Shown here: positions 12,115-44,454 of the stretch, piece by piece
Numbering within the stretch: the first letter of the stretch is position 1
How the letters are laid out: each line of letters opens with the position of its first letter
From: Deferrisomatales bacterium
GTDB lineage: Bacteria > Desulfobacterota > Deferrisomatia > Deferrisomatales > JACRMM01
Assembly (NCBI GenBank): GCA_033551855.1
Contig: JAWSUI010000007.1
Span: 33,553-97,552 of the forward strand
Direction of reading: 5' to 3'
Length of the DNA: 64,000 bases
Program-made: the position numbers and the translations under genes
Notes under the pieces: generated by a model
Told to the model about the DNA's origin: nothing
The model's input: only the letters and a program-made list of their open reading frames with translations
The model's database searches: none

Positions 12115-13182
12115 TCAGGCGGGTTTCACCGCGTCCCGGGTGGTCTCCTTGACGCGGTACATGGCCTGGTCGGCGTGGCGGATCAAGGCCAGCTTGGTCT
12201 GGGCGTCCTCGGGGTACGAGGCGACGCCGAAGCTCGCGGTAACCCGGATCCGGTACCCCTGCTCCGAGAGGAAGTAGTGCTCCCTGACCTTCTGGCGCAG
12301 GTTGGAAGCGACCGTGACTGCGCCCTTCTTGTCCGTGTTGGGCAGTACGAGCACGAACTCGTCGCCCCCGTACCGCGCGGCCACGTCGGAGGAGCGCACG
12401 CACCCGCGGATCAGCCGGCCCATCTCCGTGAGCACGCGGCTGCCCACCAGGTGCCCGTGGGTGTCGTTCACGCCCTTGAAGTAGTCCACATCGAAGAACA
12501 CCAGGGACAGGGGCGTCCCGTACCGGTGGGCGCGATCGACCTCGTGGTCCAGGTACTCCAGAAGGTGCCGAGCGTTGTACAAGCCCGTGAGGTCGTCGGT
12601 GATCACGAGCTCGCGCACCCTCTCGAAGTAGCGCGCGTTCTCTATGGCGATGGCGGCGAAGTCGGCGATGGTCGAGAGAATCTTGAGGTCGGCCTCGGAG
12701 AACTCTCCCTCGTCCATGTTGTTGATCAGCTCCACCACCCCCAGGATCCGGTTCCTGCACCGGAGGGGCACGCACACGATGGAACGGGTGGAGAAATCGC
12801 TCGCCTCGTCCACCGCCGGGGCAAAGCGGGTGTCTCCCCGCACGTCCGGAATCAGGAGGGACTCCCCGTGCAGGGCCACCCAGCCGGCGATGCCCTCCCC
12901 CTTATTCAAGCGGAGCCCCTTGAGCCGCTCTGCGGCGGGGGACACCGCAATCTCGAAGACGAGGTCTCCGCTAGCCTCGTCCAGAAGCAAGAGGGACCAG
13001 TTCTTCGGGCGGAGCAGCAGGCTCACCTTCTCCATGATGGCGCCCAGGACCTCCCGCAGGTCCAGGGTGGAGGTGAGCGCCTTGCCGATATCGACGAAGG
13101 TCTCGAGCTCTTCGCTACGCCGCTCCAGCAGGGCGAGGAGCTCCTGCTCCTCGCAGGCGCTGCGGCTGGCCTTTGTGCCCAT
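12115..13182 (-). CDS. GAF-GGDEF dinucleotide cyclase, Hypr-type candidate
   Basis: GAF domain, TDDLTGLYN, RYGGDEF and RSSD I-site; GHLVGSRVL where canonical enzymes have GHxxGDxxL. Confidence 0.9.
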   Translation of the reverse strand: MGTKASRSACEEQELLALLERRSEELETFVDIGKALTSTLDLREVLGAIMEKVSLLLRPKNWSLLLLDEASGDLVFEIAVSPAAERLKGLRLNKGEGIAGWVALHGESLLIPDVRGDTRFAPAVDEASDFSTRSIVCVPLRCRNRILGVVELINNMDEGEFSEADLKILSTIADFAAIAIENARYFERVRELVITDDLTGLYNARHLLEYLDHEVDRAHRYGTPLSLVFFDVDYFKGVNDTHGHLVGSRVLTEMGRLIRGCVRSSDVAARYGGDEFVLVLPNTDKKGAVTVASNLRQKVREHYFLSEQGYRIRVTASFGVASYPEDAQTKLALIRHADQAMYRVKETTRDAVKPA

Positions 13183-13414: not shown

Positions 13415-14548
13415 ATGCGGATCTCGTGCCCCCGTTGCAAGAGCCAGTACGACGTTCCGGACGAGCGGCTCGCCCGGGGTGCGGTCAAGATCCGTTGCGC
13501 TGCGTGTCAGCACGCCTTCGCCGTTCGCGCGCGCCCCGCTGACACCCCGCAGACGCCGCCGGGCCCTGCTCCGCTCCGCGAAGGGCGGGCAGCCGGGGAA
13601 ATGCCCTCGACCCCGCCTCCGGAGGCCCGCTTCGAGGACGTTGACCTGGACTTGGCCGCGGAACGGCTGCTCCGGGTAACCGAGCAGCCCGGCCCCCAGG
13701 GCGGGTCTGACGAGGGGTCCTGGGGAGCGGGGGAGGGACCGAGCGACACCCTCGAGTCCCTGGGGGATCTCGACCTGGGAGACCTGGGCGCCCTGGATCG
13801 GGACTTCGACCTTCGCGGGGAACCCCTCGCCCCCGGCTCCATCCCGCAAGAGCCGGCGGAGCGGGTGCGGGAAGACGAGCTCCTGTCGCCGCGAACCCGG
13901 ACTACGCCCTCGCTGGAGGGCGCTGTCGCGCCCCGGCGGGTCGACCTCCAGCCGGGATCCCGTCACACCAAGCAGCGCGCCCGGCCCTCGCCTCTCGCCG
14001 CCAAGGACCGGGGGCGGTCGCCCCTCTTCTGGGCCGTGGCGGCGGCGGCCCTCGCCACCCTGGCGTACACGGGATACAACCTGCAACGCCACCCCGACGC
14101 CTTCACTTTCCTGAGCCCGGCCAAGGTCCGCAGCCTCTGGCAGAGCCGGCAGATCGAAGCCGTTCTCGGCGTGGAGGGGCTCACCGGGTACTACCGCGAC
14201 CTGCAAGGAGACCGTCGGGCGTTCGTGATCCGGGGAGAGGTGATCAACCGCTCGTCCGGGAACCAGAGCCTCATCCGGGTCCAGGGAAGCCTGTTCGGCA
14301 AGGACGGCAGGCAACTGGCCGTCCAGGAGGTGTTCTGCGGCAACGTCGTCTCGGATGCCGAGCTCGACACCCTTTCGCCCTCCGACGTGGAGGCCCGACT
14401 CCAGAACGAGGTGGGCGACGCCATGCAGAACTTGGAGGTCGCCCCAGGGGGCCGCGTCCCCTTCACGGTGGTGTTCTTGCCACCCCCCGCGGGAGTGGAC
14501 TCCTTCAGCGTGCGCCCGGTGGGCGCGCGGGCCGAGCCCGGCACCTGA
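13415..14548 (+). CDS. Zinc-ribbon (MJ0042-like) membrane protein with DUF3426-like C-terminal domain
   Basis: MRISCPRC...VKIRCAACQHAF, acidic low-complexity linker, one TM helix, then FVIRGEVINRS...VPFTVVF. Confidence 0.8.
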   Translation: MRISCPRCKSQYDVPDERLARGAVKIRCAACQHAFAVRARPADTPQTPPGPAPLREGRAAGEMPSTPPPEARFEDVDLDLAAERLLRVTEQPGPQGGSDEGSWGAGEGPSDTLESLGDLDLGDLGALDRDFDLRGEPLAPGSIPQEPAERVREDELLSPRTRTTPSLEGAVAPRRVDLQPGSRHTKQRARPSPLAAKDRGRSPLFWAVAAAALATLAYTGYNLQRHPDAFTFLSPAKVRSLWQSRQIEAVLGVEGLTGYYRDLQGDRRAFVIRGEVINRSSGNQSLIRVQGSLFGKDGRQLAVQEVFCGNVVSDAELDTLSPSDVEARLQNEVGDAMQNLEVAPGGRVPFTVVFLPPPAGVDSFSVRPVGARAEPGT

Positions 14549-38624: not shown

Positions 38625-40453
38625 GAGGTGTCCTCCTCTCCCCCGAGGCCCTGCCCCCGGAGCGCCTCGAGGAACGCCCGGCCGTAACGCGCCAGCTTTC
38701 GTTCCCCCACCCCGGGGATTCCGGCGAGCTCCGCCAGGGTCTCGGGGACGCGCTCCGCCATCTCCCGCAGGACCGTGTCGTGGAAGATGACATAGGGCGG
38801 AACGCCCTGGGCGCGCGCCAACTCGAGCCGCAAGGCCCGAAGCCTTGCGAACAGGCGCTCTCCGGCCTCGGAGCCCCCCACCCGCGCACCGCGAGGCCTC
38901 GCACCGCGCAACGACCTCCGGCCGGACCGGTCGCGTCGCAGCAGCACCCTCTCCTCGCCCCGGAGCACCCCCCGACTCTTCCCCGTGAGGCGAAGGGCCC
39001 CGTGGCCGTCGTGATCCACGGCGGCCAGACCCCCGGCGACGAGTTGCCGGAAGACAGAGCGCCAGGCCGCGGGCTCGAGCTCGGCCCCGATCCCGAAGGT
39101 GCTGACCCGGCCGTGTCCCCACCGGCGCACCCGCTCCGTCTCCCGCCCGAGGAGGACGTCCACGAGGTGAGCCACGCCGAACCTCTGGCCGGTGCGGTAC
39201 ACACAGGAGAGCGCCTTCTGGGCGGCGAGGGTCCCGTCCCATGTCTCCACCGGCTCGAGGCACGTGTCGCAGTTCCCGCAGGGCTCGGAGCGCTCCTCAC
39301 CGAAGTACCCGAGGAGCACCTGGCGCCGGCACCGGGCCGTCTCACAGTAGCCCAGCAGGGCGTCGAGCTTCCGGCGCTCGAGCCGCTTGTGCCCCTCCTC
39401 CGCCTCCGACGCGGCGAGCATCTGCCCCAGCAGCACCACGTCCGCCATGCCGTAGCACAGCCACGCGTCGGAGGGCAGGCCGTCCCGGCCGGCGCGGCCG
39501 GTCTCCTGGTAGTACGCCTCCACGCTCTTGGGGAGATCCAGGTGGGCCACGAACCGGACGTTGGGTTTGTCGATGCCCATCCCGAACGCCACGGTGGCCA
39601 CGACCACCACCCCCTCTTCCAACACGAAGCGCTCCTGGTGAGCCCTCCGGACGTCGGCGTCCAAGCCCGCGTGGTAGGGCACGGCGTCGAAGTCCCGTCC
39701 CCGGAGCCACGCAGCCGTGTCCTCCACCCTCCGGCGGGACAGGCAGTACACGATCCCCGCGTCCGCCGGGTGCTCTGCCCGCAGAAACGCCAGGAGCTGC
39801 TCCCGCGGGCGCTCCTTGGGAACCACCCGGTACCGGATGTTCGGGCGGTCGAACCCCGTTCGGAACGTCGCCGCACCCTCGAGCCCCAAGCGCGAAGAAA
39901 TGTCGGCCCGGGTGGGGGCGTCGGCAGTGGCGGTGAGTGCCAGCCGGGGCACCCCGGCGTAGCGCTCGGCCAGGACGCCGAGGCCCAGGTACTCGGGCCG
40001 GAAGTCGTGCCCCCACTGGCTCACGCAGTGGGCCTCGTCGATGGCGAAGAGGGCCAGGCCGGCACGGTCGAGAAGGGCGAGGAACCGGTCGGTGAGCAGG
40101 CGCTCCGGGGCCACGTACACCAGGTCGAGGCCTCCCCCGAGGATCGCCGCCTCCACCCGCCGTGCCTCCTCCGGGGGGAGGGAGGAGTTGAGGGCGGCGG
40201 CCCGGACCCCCAGTTGGGCGAGGGCGTCCACCTGATCCTTCATCAGCGCGATCAGGGGCGAGACCACGACGCCTACCCCGGGCCGCACCAGGGCGGGGAT
40301 CTGGTAGCACAGGCTCTTCCCGCCCCCCGTGGGCATCAGCACCAGGGCGTCGCCCCCAGCGGCCACGTGGCGGATTACCGCCTCCTGCTGCCCCCGGAAC
40401 GCGGGGAAGCCGAACACCGTGCGGAGCACGTGGAGGGGGTCGGCGCCGGCCAT
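38621..40453 (-). CDS. recQ: ATP-dependent DNA helicase RecQ
   Basis: [32 protein letters not shown] cysteines, HRDC domain. Confidence 0.97.
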
Positions 40454-40724
40454 GGAGAACACGCTCGGTGGGGAGGAAGACACGGGCCCCAGTGTGACCG
40501 ACGGCGGGCCCGCGCGCAACGTCCGGCAGACGCCGTTCGACGGAGTCGGGCACGTCGCCTCCCGGCAGGGAGAGAGCGTGGGGCACACTCCGAGCGCCGT
40601 GGCCTCCCGGCCCGCAGACGGGCGTGGGGCGAGGACGGCTCCGCAAGCCTCCACGCGCGCGGGGGCGGCAGCGGCCTCGCCGCTTGCCGCCCCCGCTGTC
40701 TGGGCGCGCCCCCGGTGCTACCGG

Positions 40725-42206
40725 TCAGTAGCTCAGGCGAACGACCTGGCCCGGCTCGGTCACGTAGATGTTCCCGAACCAGCTCTCCTCGTCATACCCG
40801 TAATCGCTGTCCCACCAGTAGACGATCACGAAGTACGGGGTGGTGCCCACGGCGACCTGGACGTCGTCGACACCGCTCCAGCCGGGGCACGACCCCGAGC
40901 CGGAGGCCACGACGGTCCCGGACCACCCACCCCGGCGGACCACCCACGAAGCCTCGGCCTCGGGGTCTCCAGGGCAGGGCGGGCCGCTCGTGTCGCTGTC
41001 GCCCCAGACGAGGCGGAGGGTCCCCGTGCCGCTCGTGACGGTGAAGGTGACGGTGTTCTCGGCCTCCACGTTGCCCGACCAGTCCTCGGACCAGAAGGCC
41101 AGTGTGTAGGAGATCGTCCCGGTCGCGGCGGGGATGACGACCCGGGTGCCCGTCTGGATCGGGCCGTCGTTGAGGCGGTAGTAGGTCGCCTTCACCCCCA
41201 GGGTGCCGTCGTCGGTCGCCGTCAGGGTGATCGTGGTGCCCTGGTAGTAGATGGGCTGGGTGTTCGAGGTCGTGGTGGGCGGGGTGGTATCCTCGACGAC
41301 GGTGAAGATCACCGTGTTGGGCTCCAACTCGGTGTTCCCGGCCTGGTCCTTCGACCAGAACTCCAGGGTGTGCCGGCCGGGCTCCGCGACGAAGACGTAT
41401 TTGCCGGAGGCGGTCACCGGGCCCCCGTTGAGCCGGTAGAAGGTGCGCCCGACCCCCACCTTGCCGTTGTCGGTAATGGAGAAGCCGATCCTCGCCGGGC
41501 CGATGTACTCCCCGATGGCCTTCGCGGCTGTGACCGGCGGCGTGGTGTCTCCGGGGGTGTACCCTGCGTGGCAGTTGAGACAGGCGGACTGGGTGACCCG
41601 GAAGTCGCCGCCGTGGCAGAGGTTGCAGTCGTTTGCGGGGTCGTAGGAATCCTCCCAGGGCAGGTGCCCGATCGTGGAGTCCTGGTGGTAGAAGGCGTGG
41701 CAACCGCCCTGCTGGCACCCCCCGCCCCAGAGGCCCAGGGTGTCATAGGGGGTGGGGTGGCATGTCGCGCAGTCGCCGCCGTGCACGGCGACCAAGTCCA
41801 CGGCGTGGCAGATGCCGCAGTCCACGGTCACGCCGAAGTAGGGCCGGTCGCCCCGCCATCCGGCATCGTCGTGCTGGTTATCCTCGAAGAGGACCACCCG
41901 TCCGCTCCCCAGGGTCGCGGAGTGGCTGAAATCCCCGTGGACGTCCTCGAGGGTGCCGTGGCAGGGGAAGCAGACGCAGTCGCTCTGGGCGGCCGCCGGG
42001 CGCGCCCACGCGCCTGCCACCAGGAAGGCCGCCAACGGCAGGGTCGCGGCGCCCATCGCCCGGCGGAACCCGGTTCTGCCCGCGGGATGGCGCGCCCCGG
42101 CCGCTGCCGGCTCGGAGCGAGAACGCCCCCGATGTCGGGCGTAGGGCTCCCCTATTCCGTTGGAAATAGGCAACGACCTCCTGTGAACACTTTCACGAGA
42201 CTTCAT
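40725..42206 (-). CDS. Exported multiheme c-type cytochrome (six heme motifs) with C-terminal Ig-like repeats
   Basis: CFPCH, CGICH, CATCH, CQQGGCH, CNLCH, CLNCH; signal-like segment ending PAAA-Q; two DTTPP-initiated beta-rich repeats; start at 42206 (RBS) or 42056. Confidence 0.85.
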   Translation of the reverse strand: MKSRESVHRRSLPISNGIGEPYARHRGRSRSEPAAAGARHPAGRTGFRRAMGAATLPLAAFLVAGAWARPAAAQSDCVCFPCHGTLEDVHGDFSHSATLGSGRVVLFEDNQHDDAGWRGDRPYFGVTVDCGICHAVDLVAVHGGDCATCHPTPYDTLGLWGGGCQQGGCHAFYHQDSTIGHLPWEDSYDPANDCNLCHGGDFRVTQSACLNCHAGYTPGDTTPPVTAAKAIGEYIGPARIGFSITDNGKVGVGRTFYRLNGGPVTASGKYVFVAEPGRHTLEFWSKDQAGNTELEPNTVIFTVVEDTTPPTTTSNTQPIYYQGTTITLTATDDGTLGVKATYYRLNDGPIQTGTRVVIPAATGTISYTLAFWSEDWSGNVEAENTVTFTVTSGTGTLRLVWGDSDTSGPPCPGDPEAEASWVVRRGGWSGTVVASGSGSCPGWSGVDDVQVAVGTTPYFVIVYWWDSDYGYDEESWFGNIYVTEPGQVVRLSY

Positions 42207-42546
42207 GCGCTCCCCCTTCCTCCCAAAAAGGTTCACTGCAGACGCCCACGCCGACGGGCGGCACACAATCGCCTAGTGCCGTTCCCTTCGACTTGAAGCC
42301 CAGTCGCACCGAAGACGTGATCTCCACCAAACACGCAACGAGCACACCGCTTACCACGCGCGCGAAAGAGCGTCAATCCAAATGGTGCATCCAAACGGTG
42401 CATCGTTTCACGGTCGGCGCGCTTCCGACCGTTCCAGGCAGGCCCGAGTCGGGCCCCTTCCCGTGCCGACTACTCGTAGACAAGAACTTCGGTTGGTCCG
42501 AAGAGCCACCTCCCCCTTGTGCGCCCTGCTCGAAAGGTTACTGGAC

Positions 42547-42704
42547 TAGCAGGACGCTGAAAAACGGCCTGGGGTGCGCCCCACGGAGGGGGCGCCGAAT
42601 CTCGGAGCTTGAAAAGCGCAGTGATTCATGAGGGTTCGAAGGGGCCGTCCCCGAGAGCCCTCACCTGCAAAACCCCGTGGAGGGGGTTTTTCAGTGCCCT
42701 GCTA
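42547..42704. mobile_element. MITE-like element, 158 bp
   Basis: Terminal inverted repeats TAGCAGGACGCTGAAAAAC / GTTTTTCAGTGCCCTGCTA (17/19 match), TA at both ends, too short for a transposase. Confidence 0.75.
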
Positions 42705-44454
42705 AATCCAACGCCGCGAGCCGCGCCAGCGAACCGTCCGGCGCGGTGTCCCGCTGGAGGCGGGCCACGAGCTCGCGGTCGTGGCCGTAGAGGTCGGTGC
42801 GGAAGTGGACGGCACCGTCCTTCCCGACCCAGGCCGTGAAGTACTCGATATGAACGGACACCGGTTCCCGTAGGTACACCGTGCGTTCGAGCCCCTGGGC
42901 CAGAACGTCGGTCAGTGCCTCCGGGGGCCAGCGCGGGTCTCCTGCCAGGACGTACTCCGCCAAGCGGACCGGCTCCGCCACCCGGATGCACCCGCGGCTG
43001 AAATCCCGGCGCGCCCGGGAGAAGAGGTCGCGGGACGGCGTGTCGTGCAGATAGACGTGGAACCGGTTGGGAAAGAGGAACTTGACTTGCCCCATCGCGT
43101 TCTCCGGGCCCGGCCGCTGCCGAAAGTGCAGCCCCTCCCGCTGGAGCGACACGGCGGCCCAGTCGACGGTAGTGGGGTCTACGACCTGAGGCGCGTCCCA
43201 GCCCCGCAGGACCTGGAACCCCTTCTCCTCCAGCCGCAAGGGATCCTTCCGCAACTGCGGCAGGAGATCTTCCCGGGCGATCCTGGGCGGCACGTTCCAG
43301 GAAGGGTTCAGCACCAGGTGCGTCATGCGGCCGGTGAAGACCGGCGTCGGGTTCTGCGTGGCCCCCACGACCACCGGCATCTGCAGCACCGGGTTTCCCT
43401 GCTCCCAGGCCTCCAGGCGAAAGGCCGCCGTGTTGACCCGGAGGTGGCGCGCCGCGGGGAGCTGCCCCCGCCAGCGCAACCGCTCCAAATTTGCCTCGAC
43501 CTGCGCCACCCGCGTCTCGACAGGCACATTCAGTGCCCTCCGGGTCGCGCGGCCCACCACCCCGTCCGTCTCCAGGCCGTAGCGGTCCTGAAACGCCCGC
43601 ACGGCCGCCTCGAGGTCCGCATCCATCCCGGGGGGGCCTTCCGGCGCGGCCAGGAAGCCTTCGGCAAAGAGCCGCTGCCGCAAGAGCGCCGTCGCCGGGG
43701 AGAGATCCCCGCGGCGCAAGGCGGCCGTCTCGGGCAGCGGCTCCCACCCCCCCGCGGCGGCGACGGCTCGGTACCAGGCCAGGGCGCCGCGAAGCCCGCG
43801 ATACCCGGCATCGGAAGGGGCCAACCCTTCCAGGGTCTCGGCAATGCGCCCGGTGGAGAGGGCCTCTTCGAGCACGGCCGTCAGGTCGGCGGAGGGGGGC
43901 GTCGTCCCCGGCTCCGCCCGGCCCCCGCGCAAGTGATCCGCCAGGGTCAGGAAGGCGTCCGTCAACAGGAGGTCGCGCACGGCCTGGGAGGGAGCGTCCA
44001 GGAACCCCGGGCCTCCCTCCTCCTCGTCGCTCCGCCACCCCTCCGGCGGCAGATAATCGTCCGGCCGCAAACCGTGGCCGGCGGCACGTCGGATCGCAGA
44101 CTTCAGGGCCTCCGCGGCCGGGAGGAGCCGGCTGTCCTCGGTCCAGGCCAGTCGGAATCCCCTCTCCCGGTAGAAGCGCGCGCAGAGCTCGGGACTGTGG
44201 AGCGGAAGCGTCCCCGCTGCCCGCTCCGCGACGGCGCCTACGGCGGCGTCCCCGGAGGCTCCACCCGCTGCATTGGCACGGCCCGCCGCCCCCGCGACGG
44301 CCACGAGGGCCGCCAGCAGCAGGAGCCCGGCACCCCACCCCGCTATCGCCCGCAGCCGATCCCAACCCGTGGCCCGGGCGCCGAGGCGACCGTTGGTCGC
44401 CACGATCCCCTCGCCCGGAGTAGCTCCCCGGGGCTGCGTGACCGCCCGACACAT
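42691..44454 (-). CDS. L,D-transpeptidase (YcbB/LdtD-like) with peptidoglycan-binding domain
   Basis: AVRAFQDRYGLETDGVVG PG-binding motif; NPSWNVP, VKFLFPN, YLHDTP...SRGCIRV catalytic region; RBS GGAGGAGGAG. Confidence 0.92.
   Translation of the reverse strand: MCRAVTQPRGATPGEGIVATNGRLGARATGWDRLRAIAGWGAGLLLLAALVAVAGAAGRANAAGGASGDAAVGAVAERAAGTLPLHSPELCARFYRERGFRLAWTEDSRLLPAAEALKSAIRRAAGHGLRPDDYLPPEGWRSDEEEGGPGFLDAPSQAVRDLLLTDAFLTLADHLRGGRAEPGTTPPSADLTAVLEEALSTGRIAETLEGLAPSDAGYRGLRGALAWYRAVAAAGGWEPLPETAALRRGDLSPATALLRQRLFAEGFLAAPEGPPGMDADLEAAVRAFQDRYGLETDGVVGRATRRALNVPVETRVAQVEANLERLRWRGQLPAARHLRVNTAAFRLEAWEQGNPVLQMPVVVGATQNPTPVFTGRMTHLVLNPSWNVPPRIAREDLLPQLRKDPLRLEEKGFQVLRGWDAPQVVDPTTVDWAAVSLQREGLHFRQRPGPENAMGQVKFLFPNRFHVYLHDTPSRDLFSRARRDFSRGCIRVAEPVRLAEYVLAGDPRWPPEALTDVLAQGLERTVYLREPVSVHIEYFTAWVGKDGAVHFRTDLYGHDRELVARLQRDTAPDGSLARLAALDLAGH

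Follow-up and report, generated by a model that had tools for sequence, protein, structure and literature searches.

A GAF-GGDEF protein of a Deferrisomatales genome as a candidate GacB-type GMP-AMP cyclase

Proteins that pair a GAF sensor with a GGDEF domain are named diguanylate cyclases by the databases, and the question raised by one such gene in a Deferrisomatales genome is whether that name describes its product. The gene lies in a window of 64,000 nt (the whole stretch of contig JAWSUI010000007.1 that was analysed; GCA_033551855.1). A sequence-only reading had proposed that it encodes a Hypr enzyme, a synthase of 3',3'-cGAMP that routine annotation would label as a plain diguanylate cyclase, and current database naming bears out the latter point. 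We examined the selectivity residues, orthology, sensor domain and inhibitory site of the protein, and searched the genome and its relatives for candidate readers and partners (Table 1). The reading that we favour, and hold to be fairly probable from comparative sequence evidence, is that this is a GacB-family GAF-GGDEF protein that would make mainly 3',3'-cGAMP upon cAMP binding, with weak c-di-GMP feedback and with predicted partners elsewhere in the genome.

Table 1. Features of the cyclase gene, its surroundings and the candidate partner and reader loci (window positions, or genome:contig:positions for loci given as G000)
Feature	Position	Strand	Basis or remark
GacB-type Hypr GMP-AMP cyclase candidate gene (P0001), GAF-GGDEF, 355 aa	12115..13182	-	Translation, no internal stop; Pfam
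GAF domain, residues 41-180, cyclic-nucleotide-binding type	12643..13062	-	Pfam, E 2.5e-20
GGDEF catalytic domain, residues 194-350	12133..12603	-	Pfam PF00990, E 2.9e-45; best PDB match GacA 6D9M; AlphaFold
Ala204, cross-dimer residue (Y304 in GmGacA; canonical cyclases have Arg)	12571..12573	-	Alignment to GacA
Ser248, Hypr selectivity residue (PleD D344, GmGacA S348)	12439..12441	-	Codon AGC; alignments
RxxD part of I-site, R263-S-S-D266	12385..12396	-	Sequence; R in 120/120, D in 84/120 homologs
GGDEF motif, residues 272-276, with Asp needed by Ser-type enzyme and catalytic Glu	12355..12369	-	Sequence; PMC6456294
Asn294, replacing third I-site arginine (PleD R390, GsGacA R393, MxGacB R286, Bd0367 R260)	12301..12303	-	Alignments
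Zinc-ribbon/DUF3426 membrane protein gene, divergent from cyclase	13415-14548	+	Pfam
Predicted multiheme cytochrome	40725-42266	-	Six motifs resembling CxxCH, one of them with a four-residue gap between its cysteines
RxxQ HD-GYP, candidate cGAMP phosphodiesterase (L136)	G000:C73:7592-8257	-	RAYQ aligned to PmGH RPYK
gacA ortholog before hisS	G000:C35:21061-21738 (L138:1562-2239)		Internal deletion
Tandem GEMM-I riboswitches, G20 (L001, L002)	G000:C21:34775-35069	-	Before large secreted DUF11 protein (adhesin)
GEMM-I riboswitch, G20 (L003)	G000:C86:1391-1471		30 nt before OmcS homolog
Riboswitch and OmcS-like genes (L003, L140)	G000:C86:1391-5578		

Selectivity residue and predicted product

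The start of the gene at position 13182 was favoured over an upstream TTG at 13488, as close homologs are 347-363 aa long and cover 95-100 % of the protein, and the longer ORF was rejected on these lengths. An AlphaFold model (mean pLDDT 87) linked both domains by a long helix comprising residues 163-194, and a fold search with this model returned GAF/PHY-GGDEF cyclases, 6D9M and 5W10, with no further family. A promoter and terminator scan gave nothing above chance.

The GGDEF domain found its best PDB match in Geobacter GacA (6D9M, E 2.1e-52; next match 8.4e-34). Ser248 is encoded within VNDTHGHLVGSRVL (NDTHGHLVG-S-RVL). The match to PleD chain 9g85_A paired residues 191-299 of the query with 287-395 of the chain, segments of equal length that were taken as gap-free (the alignment was not printed), which places Ser248 at D344, Asn239 at N335 and Asn294 at R390. 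In PleD, D344 is reported to be the guanine reader, with Ser in its place in Hypr enzymes (PMC7288161). The sequence-only reading had put this Ser at the position of PleD D344 and of the corresponding residue in GacA, and the placement held for both proteins. Ser occupied the selectivity position in all 120 listed homologs, and when the genome was scanned in six frames, Ser/Thr combined with the GG[DE][ED][FY] pattern occurred a single time; together these results argue that Ser248 is not there by chance.

Published work on Hypr enzymes (PMC6456294) reports that the Ser-type enzyme requires GGDE[F/Y] and that the cross-dimer residue biases the product, Tyr, Ser, Ala or Gln leading mainly to cGAMP and Arg to more c-di-GMP; the enzymes are described there as promiscuous in vitro, and two that were assayed, both with a cross-dimer Arg, made more c-di-GMP. 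All three marks published for Hypr enzymes are present in our protein (Ser248, GGDEF at 272-276 and the non-Arg residue Ala204), whilst the marks of canonical diguanylate cyclases, Asp at PleD 344 and a cross-dimer Arg, are absent, Ser248 and Ala204 standing in their stead. Canonical paralogs in the tree alignment display D at the selectivity position and mostly R at the cross-dimer position, the latter of which was occupied in the 120 homologs by Ala (50), Ser (50), Gly (16), Asp (3) and Cys (1), and by Arg in none. The reported catalytic residues of PleD (D327, N335, E370, K442 and R446; PMC7288161) correspond by offset to D231, N239, D274, K345 and R349, which were invariant in 41/41 aligned homologs. 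Because all three marks are present and a characterized GAF-Hypr enzyme is orthologous to our protein (see below), the prediction of cGAMP synthesis is supported, and we consider cGAMP the very probable product; the Hypr assignment of the sequence-only reading was upheld on the same grounds.

The closest named relatives of the protein belong to Deferrisomatales and Deferrisoma (72-74 % identity). A Ser-bearing ortholog was identified in 19 of 20 genomes of the same order (Deferrisomatales), the twentieth returning only a canonical paralog with the GAF-GGDEF query, and a Ser-type match was present in 5 of 20 further genomes of the phylum. One close ortholog (L046:2374-3372, 82 % identity) reads GGGEF for GGDEF, possibly an inactive variant or a sequencing error. 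The 1.5-kb flanks of the 19 ortholog loci contained the divergent zinc-ribbon/DUF3426 gene beside the cyclase in 15 cases and prfC after it in four, and contained no gene hinting at an output.

GacB orthology, predicted cAMP sensing and the inhibitory site

MxGacB (MXAN_2643) of Myxococcus xanthus is reported to be a GAF-GGDEF Hypr enzyme that cAMP activates (EC50 about 79 nM) and that c-di-GMP inhibits through R286 (IC50 17.8 uM), both R286 and R292 having been mutated in that study (bioRxiv 10.1101/600031). A single full-length match to our protein was found in each of 27 of 40 Myxococcaceae genomes (a count that leaves out one unpublished genome), with 46-56 % identity and with Ser in all 27. 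Three Myxococcaceae matches carry Arg at both 286 and 292. L207, a Myxococcaceae protein with both arginines that is labelled GacB by residue numbering only, was 55 % identical over 340 aa to the GAF-GGDEF protein and 58 % identical in the GAF domain. A FastTree phylogeny of 59 GGDEF domains joined our protein, together with its relatives from Deferrisomatales and Desulfuromonadia, to the GAF enzymes of Myxococcaceae (support 0.99), and GacA formed a separate clade (support 0.978). By sequence the protein is a GacB ortholog, the GacB label having been assigned by numbering.

The best PDB match of the GAF domain was 5W10 (E 1.1e-38; 41 % identity, TM 0.86), annotated as the cAMP-bound GAF domain of Lcd1, and the next matches were the cGMP-binding GAFs of PDE5. 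Lcd1 of Leptospira interrogans is itself reported to be a cAMP-activated GAF-GGDEF diguanylate cyclase (PMC8846402). As judged from overall similarity, the GAF domain is likely a cAMP sensor.

The sequence-only reading had described both the GGDEF motif and the I-site as intact. This was correct for the GGDEF motif and for the RxxD residues R263 and D266, and R217 (PleD R313 by offset) is retained as well, but the third I-site arginine is replaced by Asn294. The PleD I-site is reported to include R390 besides RxxD (PMC7288161), and Asn294 sits 46 residues past the selectivity Ser, the same spacing as between S347 and R393 in GacA and between S214 and R260 in Bd0367. Substitution of R393 (GacA) or R260 (Bd0367) by Ala is reported to have cost these enzymes their bound c-di-GMP and raised their activity (PMC9140294), and loss of the equivalent arginine is reported to abolish c-di-GMP binding in GacA, GacB and Bd0367. 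The residue was other than Arg in 21/21 same-order copies, and across the 120 homologs it was Asn in 49, Lys in 33, His in 16, Arg in 11, Asp in 9 and another residue in 2. A complete I-site, which is a reported property of MxGacB and does not define the family, is absent from the protein, with RxxD kept and the third Arg exchanged. Because Asn294 replaces this arginine, inhibition is predicted to be weak or nil, and we regard it as likely that c-di-GMP inhibits the GAF-GGDEF protein weakly or not at all. WspR, a feedback-inhibited cyclase, has Lys at the position aligned to Asn294, so loss of the I-site Arg need not abolish inhibition.

Readers, partners and alternative explanations

A Geobacter-style output, whereby cGAMP acts through GEMM-Ib riboswitches on electron-transfer genes, had been suggested by the sequence-only reading together with a genome scan for such riboswitches. 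The scan identified three GEMM-I riboswitches (RF01051; still three at E up to 5) and no RF01786 match among the 150 of 322 candidates scored, in a 132-contig assembly that leaves absence unproven. Position 20 is reported to set the GEMM-I ligand, G for c-di-GMP and A for cGAMP, and the G20 riboswitch Vc2 to bind cGAMP at 10 uM versus picomolar for c-di-GMP (PMC6140456); an A20G change in Gmet_0970 is likewise reported to switch the riboswitch to c-di-GMP. Position 20 was G in all three copies of this genome and A in none, so that they are predicted to be of the c-di-GMP type and the suggested output found no support. As a control, the same column read A in 7 of 10 Geobacter hydrogenophilus copies fetched, of 21 found.

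Two of the three riboswitches are arranged in tandem before the DUF11 gene, the upstream copy of the pair having an altered GGGAAAGA segment. The third precedes a homolog of the hexaheme nanowire protein OmcS (E 1.9e-112 to 6EF8), behind which lie two additional OmcS-like genes; another contig (G000:C24:18675-48288) holds four further matches of this kind. The omcS riboswitch of one Geobacteraceae genome (G105) was identical to the C86 copy at 59 of 81 nt but displayed A20, and a further genome (G004) also carries a riboswitch-omcS pair, with G20. An omcS-linked GEMM-I copy of another Geobacteraceae genome (G085; L270:2843-2929) has C at position 20, for which an alignment shift or a variant is possible. 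The search of 21 genomes gave 14 riboswitches, 10 with G20 and four with A20; every A20 copy belongs to G013, G015 or G017. These three genomes contain a Ser ortholog, an RxxQ HD-GYP gene and A20 riboswitches together, and their GacA has Gly. Their loci (L128-L130, L132) make up a complete predicted writer-reader-eraser set; wherever an ORF could be made out behind one of the readers, it was not a cytochrome gene.

The multiheme cytochrome at 40725 had been mentioned as the kind of target that such pathways control. No riboswitch was identified near it (Rfam; the window at gathering scores, positions 40000-43200 at E up to 1), neither upstream of the gene nor elsewhere in the regions covered, and a link from the cyclase to this cytochrome was rejected as unsupported. 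The protein has a C-terminal beta-rich repeat region and a weak Pfam C7 match only.

RxxQ, reported as the PmxA signature of cGAMP phosphodiesterases (bioRxiv 10.1101/600031), was present in 1 of 12 HD_5 matches of the genome, the HD-GYP protein on contig C73; a close paralog of that protein, on contig C22, has RxxR. RxxQ homologs occurred in 11 of the 21 genomes searched (11/22 loci), G013, G015 and G017 included. A PAS-class III adenylate cyclase is encoded at G000:C5:123640, and the genome yielded a single PF00211 cyclase. The gacA ortholog before hisS lacks about 650 nt relative to a same-genus copy. A contig from run X1 spans the deletion junction, and another X1 contig has two extra bases near an apparent frameshift; run X1, possibly the source sample, is not independent. 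We take the internal deletion as supported and the frameshift as not firm. Among the hisS-linked gacA copies of the order (L153-L166, L274-L278), 13 of the 14 that are full length and all five partial or shorter ones have Gly in place of Ser; counted by genome, the Gly type was present in 18 of the 19 Deferrisomatales genomes where gacA was found. The Gly and deletion data leave the GAF enzyme as the only Ser-type Hypr found in this genome.

Since the riboswitch readers found in the genome are all G20 and no cGAMP reader was identified, the GacB reading is weakened. The foremost alternative is that in the cell the protein serves chiefly as a diguanylate cyclase activated by cAMP, in the manner of Lcd1, and feeds the G20 riboswitches that precede the DUF11 adhesin gene and the omcS-like cluster. 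This would fit the predominance of G20 here and across the 21 genomes, as well as a GAF domain closest to that of Lcd1 among solved structures, and Hypr enzymes are reported to make c-di-GMP too in E. coli (PMC8835794). We nevertheless judge it improbable, given that the homologs uniformly have Ser and never a cross-dimer Arg, that canonical Asp-type cyclases in the genome can supply c-di-GMP, that an RxxQ phosphodiesterase is present, and that GacA and Bd0367 are reported as cGAMP sources in vivo. A second alternative, which we place a little lower, accepts the Hypr chemistry but supposes that the GAF domain binds cGMP or a metabolite instead of cAMP, or that the protein is a nucleotide receptor of little activity; the rank of the PDE5 GAFs among the PDB matches and the single PF00211 cyclase speak for it, whereas the identity of the GAF domain to GacB-numbered proteins and to the cAMP-bound Lcd1 GAF, and the invariance of the catalytic residues, speak against it. 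Least probable, and in our view quite unlikely, is that cGAMP from this enzyme turns on electron-transfer genes through the riboswitch before omcS: its place ahead of three OmcS-like genes, its resemblance to the Geobacteraceae copy and the report that the Geobacter sulfurreducens omcST riboswitch senses both nucleotides are set against G20 in the C86 and G004 copies, which selects c-di-GMP, and against a cytochrome at 40725 with no riboswitch nearby.

Proposed mechanism and relation to known systems

Under the preferred GacB reading, and by extension from GacA and GacB, cAMP bound in the GAF domains would reorient the dimer via the linker helix such that the half active sites meet. Ser248 could then take adenine or guanine, Asp274 would hold Mg2+ at the proper distance, and Ala204 would represent the loss of a guanine-favouring cross-dimer arginine. 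An active site of this Ser/Asp/Ala composition may produce mainly 3',3'-cGAMP from ATP and GTP and be subject to little feedback by c-di-GMP. The PAS-class III cyclase is a candidate source of cAMP and the RxxQ HD-GYP protein a candidate eraser of cGAMP, whilst the cGAMP reader in this genome is likely something other than a GEMM-Ib riboswitch.

A wider and distinctly more speculative proposal, which we consider doubtful as a whole, is that the GacB branch of Deferrisomatales and Desulfuromonadia forms a cAMP-to-cGAMP relay free of c-di-GMP feedback, that it replaces the Gly-type GacA as the cGAMP source of Deferrisomatales, that a single-base change shifted the omcS nanowire switch of this genome from cGAMP to c-di-GMP, and that cGAMP acts via a protein receptor. 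If so, Gly would constitute a third selectivity state, one not described in the literature consulted on Hypr enzymes. The preferred GacB reading would by itself extend the cAMP-activated GacB type to an order of OmcS-bearing bacteria and correct the routine diguanylate cyclase annotation. The loci also offer natural variants for published rules, namely an enzyme without the I-site Arg, a Gly-type GacA and an omcS riboswitch that differs from a Geobacteraceae copy at the specificity base; of these, the I-site change is lineage-wide and worth testing. A genome with a candidate writer and eraser, in which a GEMM-Ib reader was not found, would be a place to seek a protein receptor for cGAMP.

The enzyme type, the GAF-Hypr architecture and the cAMP activator are already published for MxGacB. 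A full-text literature search, the scope of which lay outside the Hallberg 2016 candidate list, found no paper joining Deferrisoma and GGDEF, and the supplementary candidates of Hallberg 2016 may already name Deferrisoma proteins. For Deferrisoma and omcS, the full-text search returned only an unrelated entry.

Among Geobacter enzymes, GSU1937 was rejected as the closest relative, being reported as a transmembrane GGDDF protein (PMC8835794). GacA (GSU1658/Gmet_1914, PDB 6D9M) resembles the protein in its GGDEF domain, which is 52 % identical to that of G. hydrogenophilus GacA and shares with 6D9M an identical NDTHGHLVGS stretch in the printed alignment. Unlike our protein, GacA carries an N-terminal receiver domain, a cross-dimer Tyr and the I-site Arg, and its riboswitch readers are of the A20 type; Pfam detected no receiver domain in the GAF-GGDEF protein, and the hisS-linked gene of this genome is a separate, deleted remnant. 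Lcd1 is alike in its GAF domain, the part compared here by sequence, and in its sensor-cyclase layout, but has c-di-GMP as its reported product. GacB (MXAN_2643) matches in GAF-GGDEF architecture, length class, the Ser, Ala and GGDEF marks, and clade. It differs in the I-site, where all 27 Myxococcaceae orthologs have Arg at R286 and the Deferrisomatales protein has Asn294, and in its host, Myxococcus as opposed to a member of Deferrisomatales with OmcS-like cytochromes.
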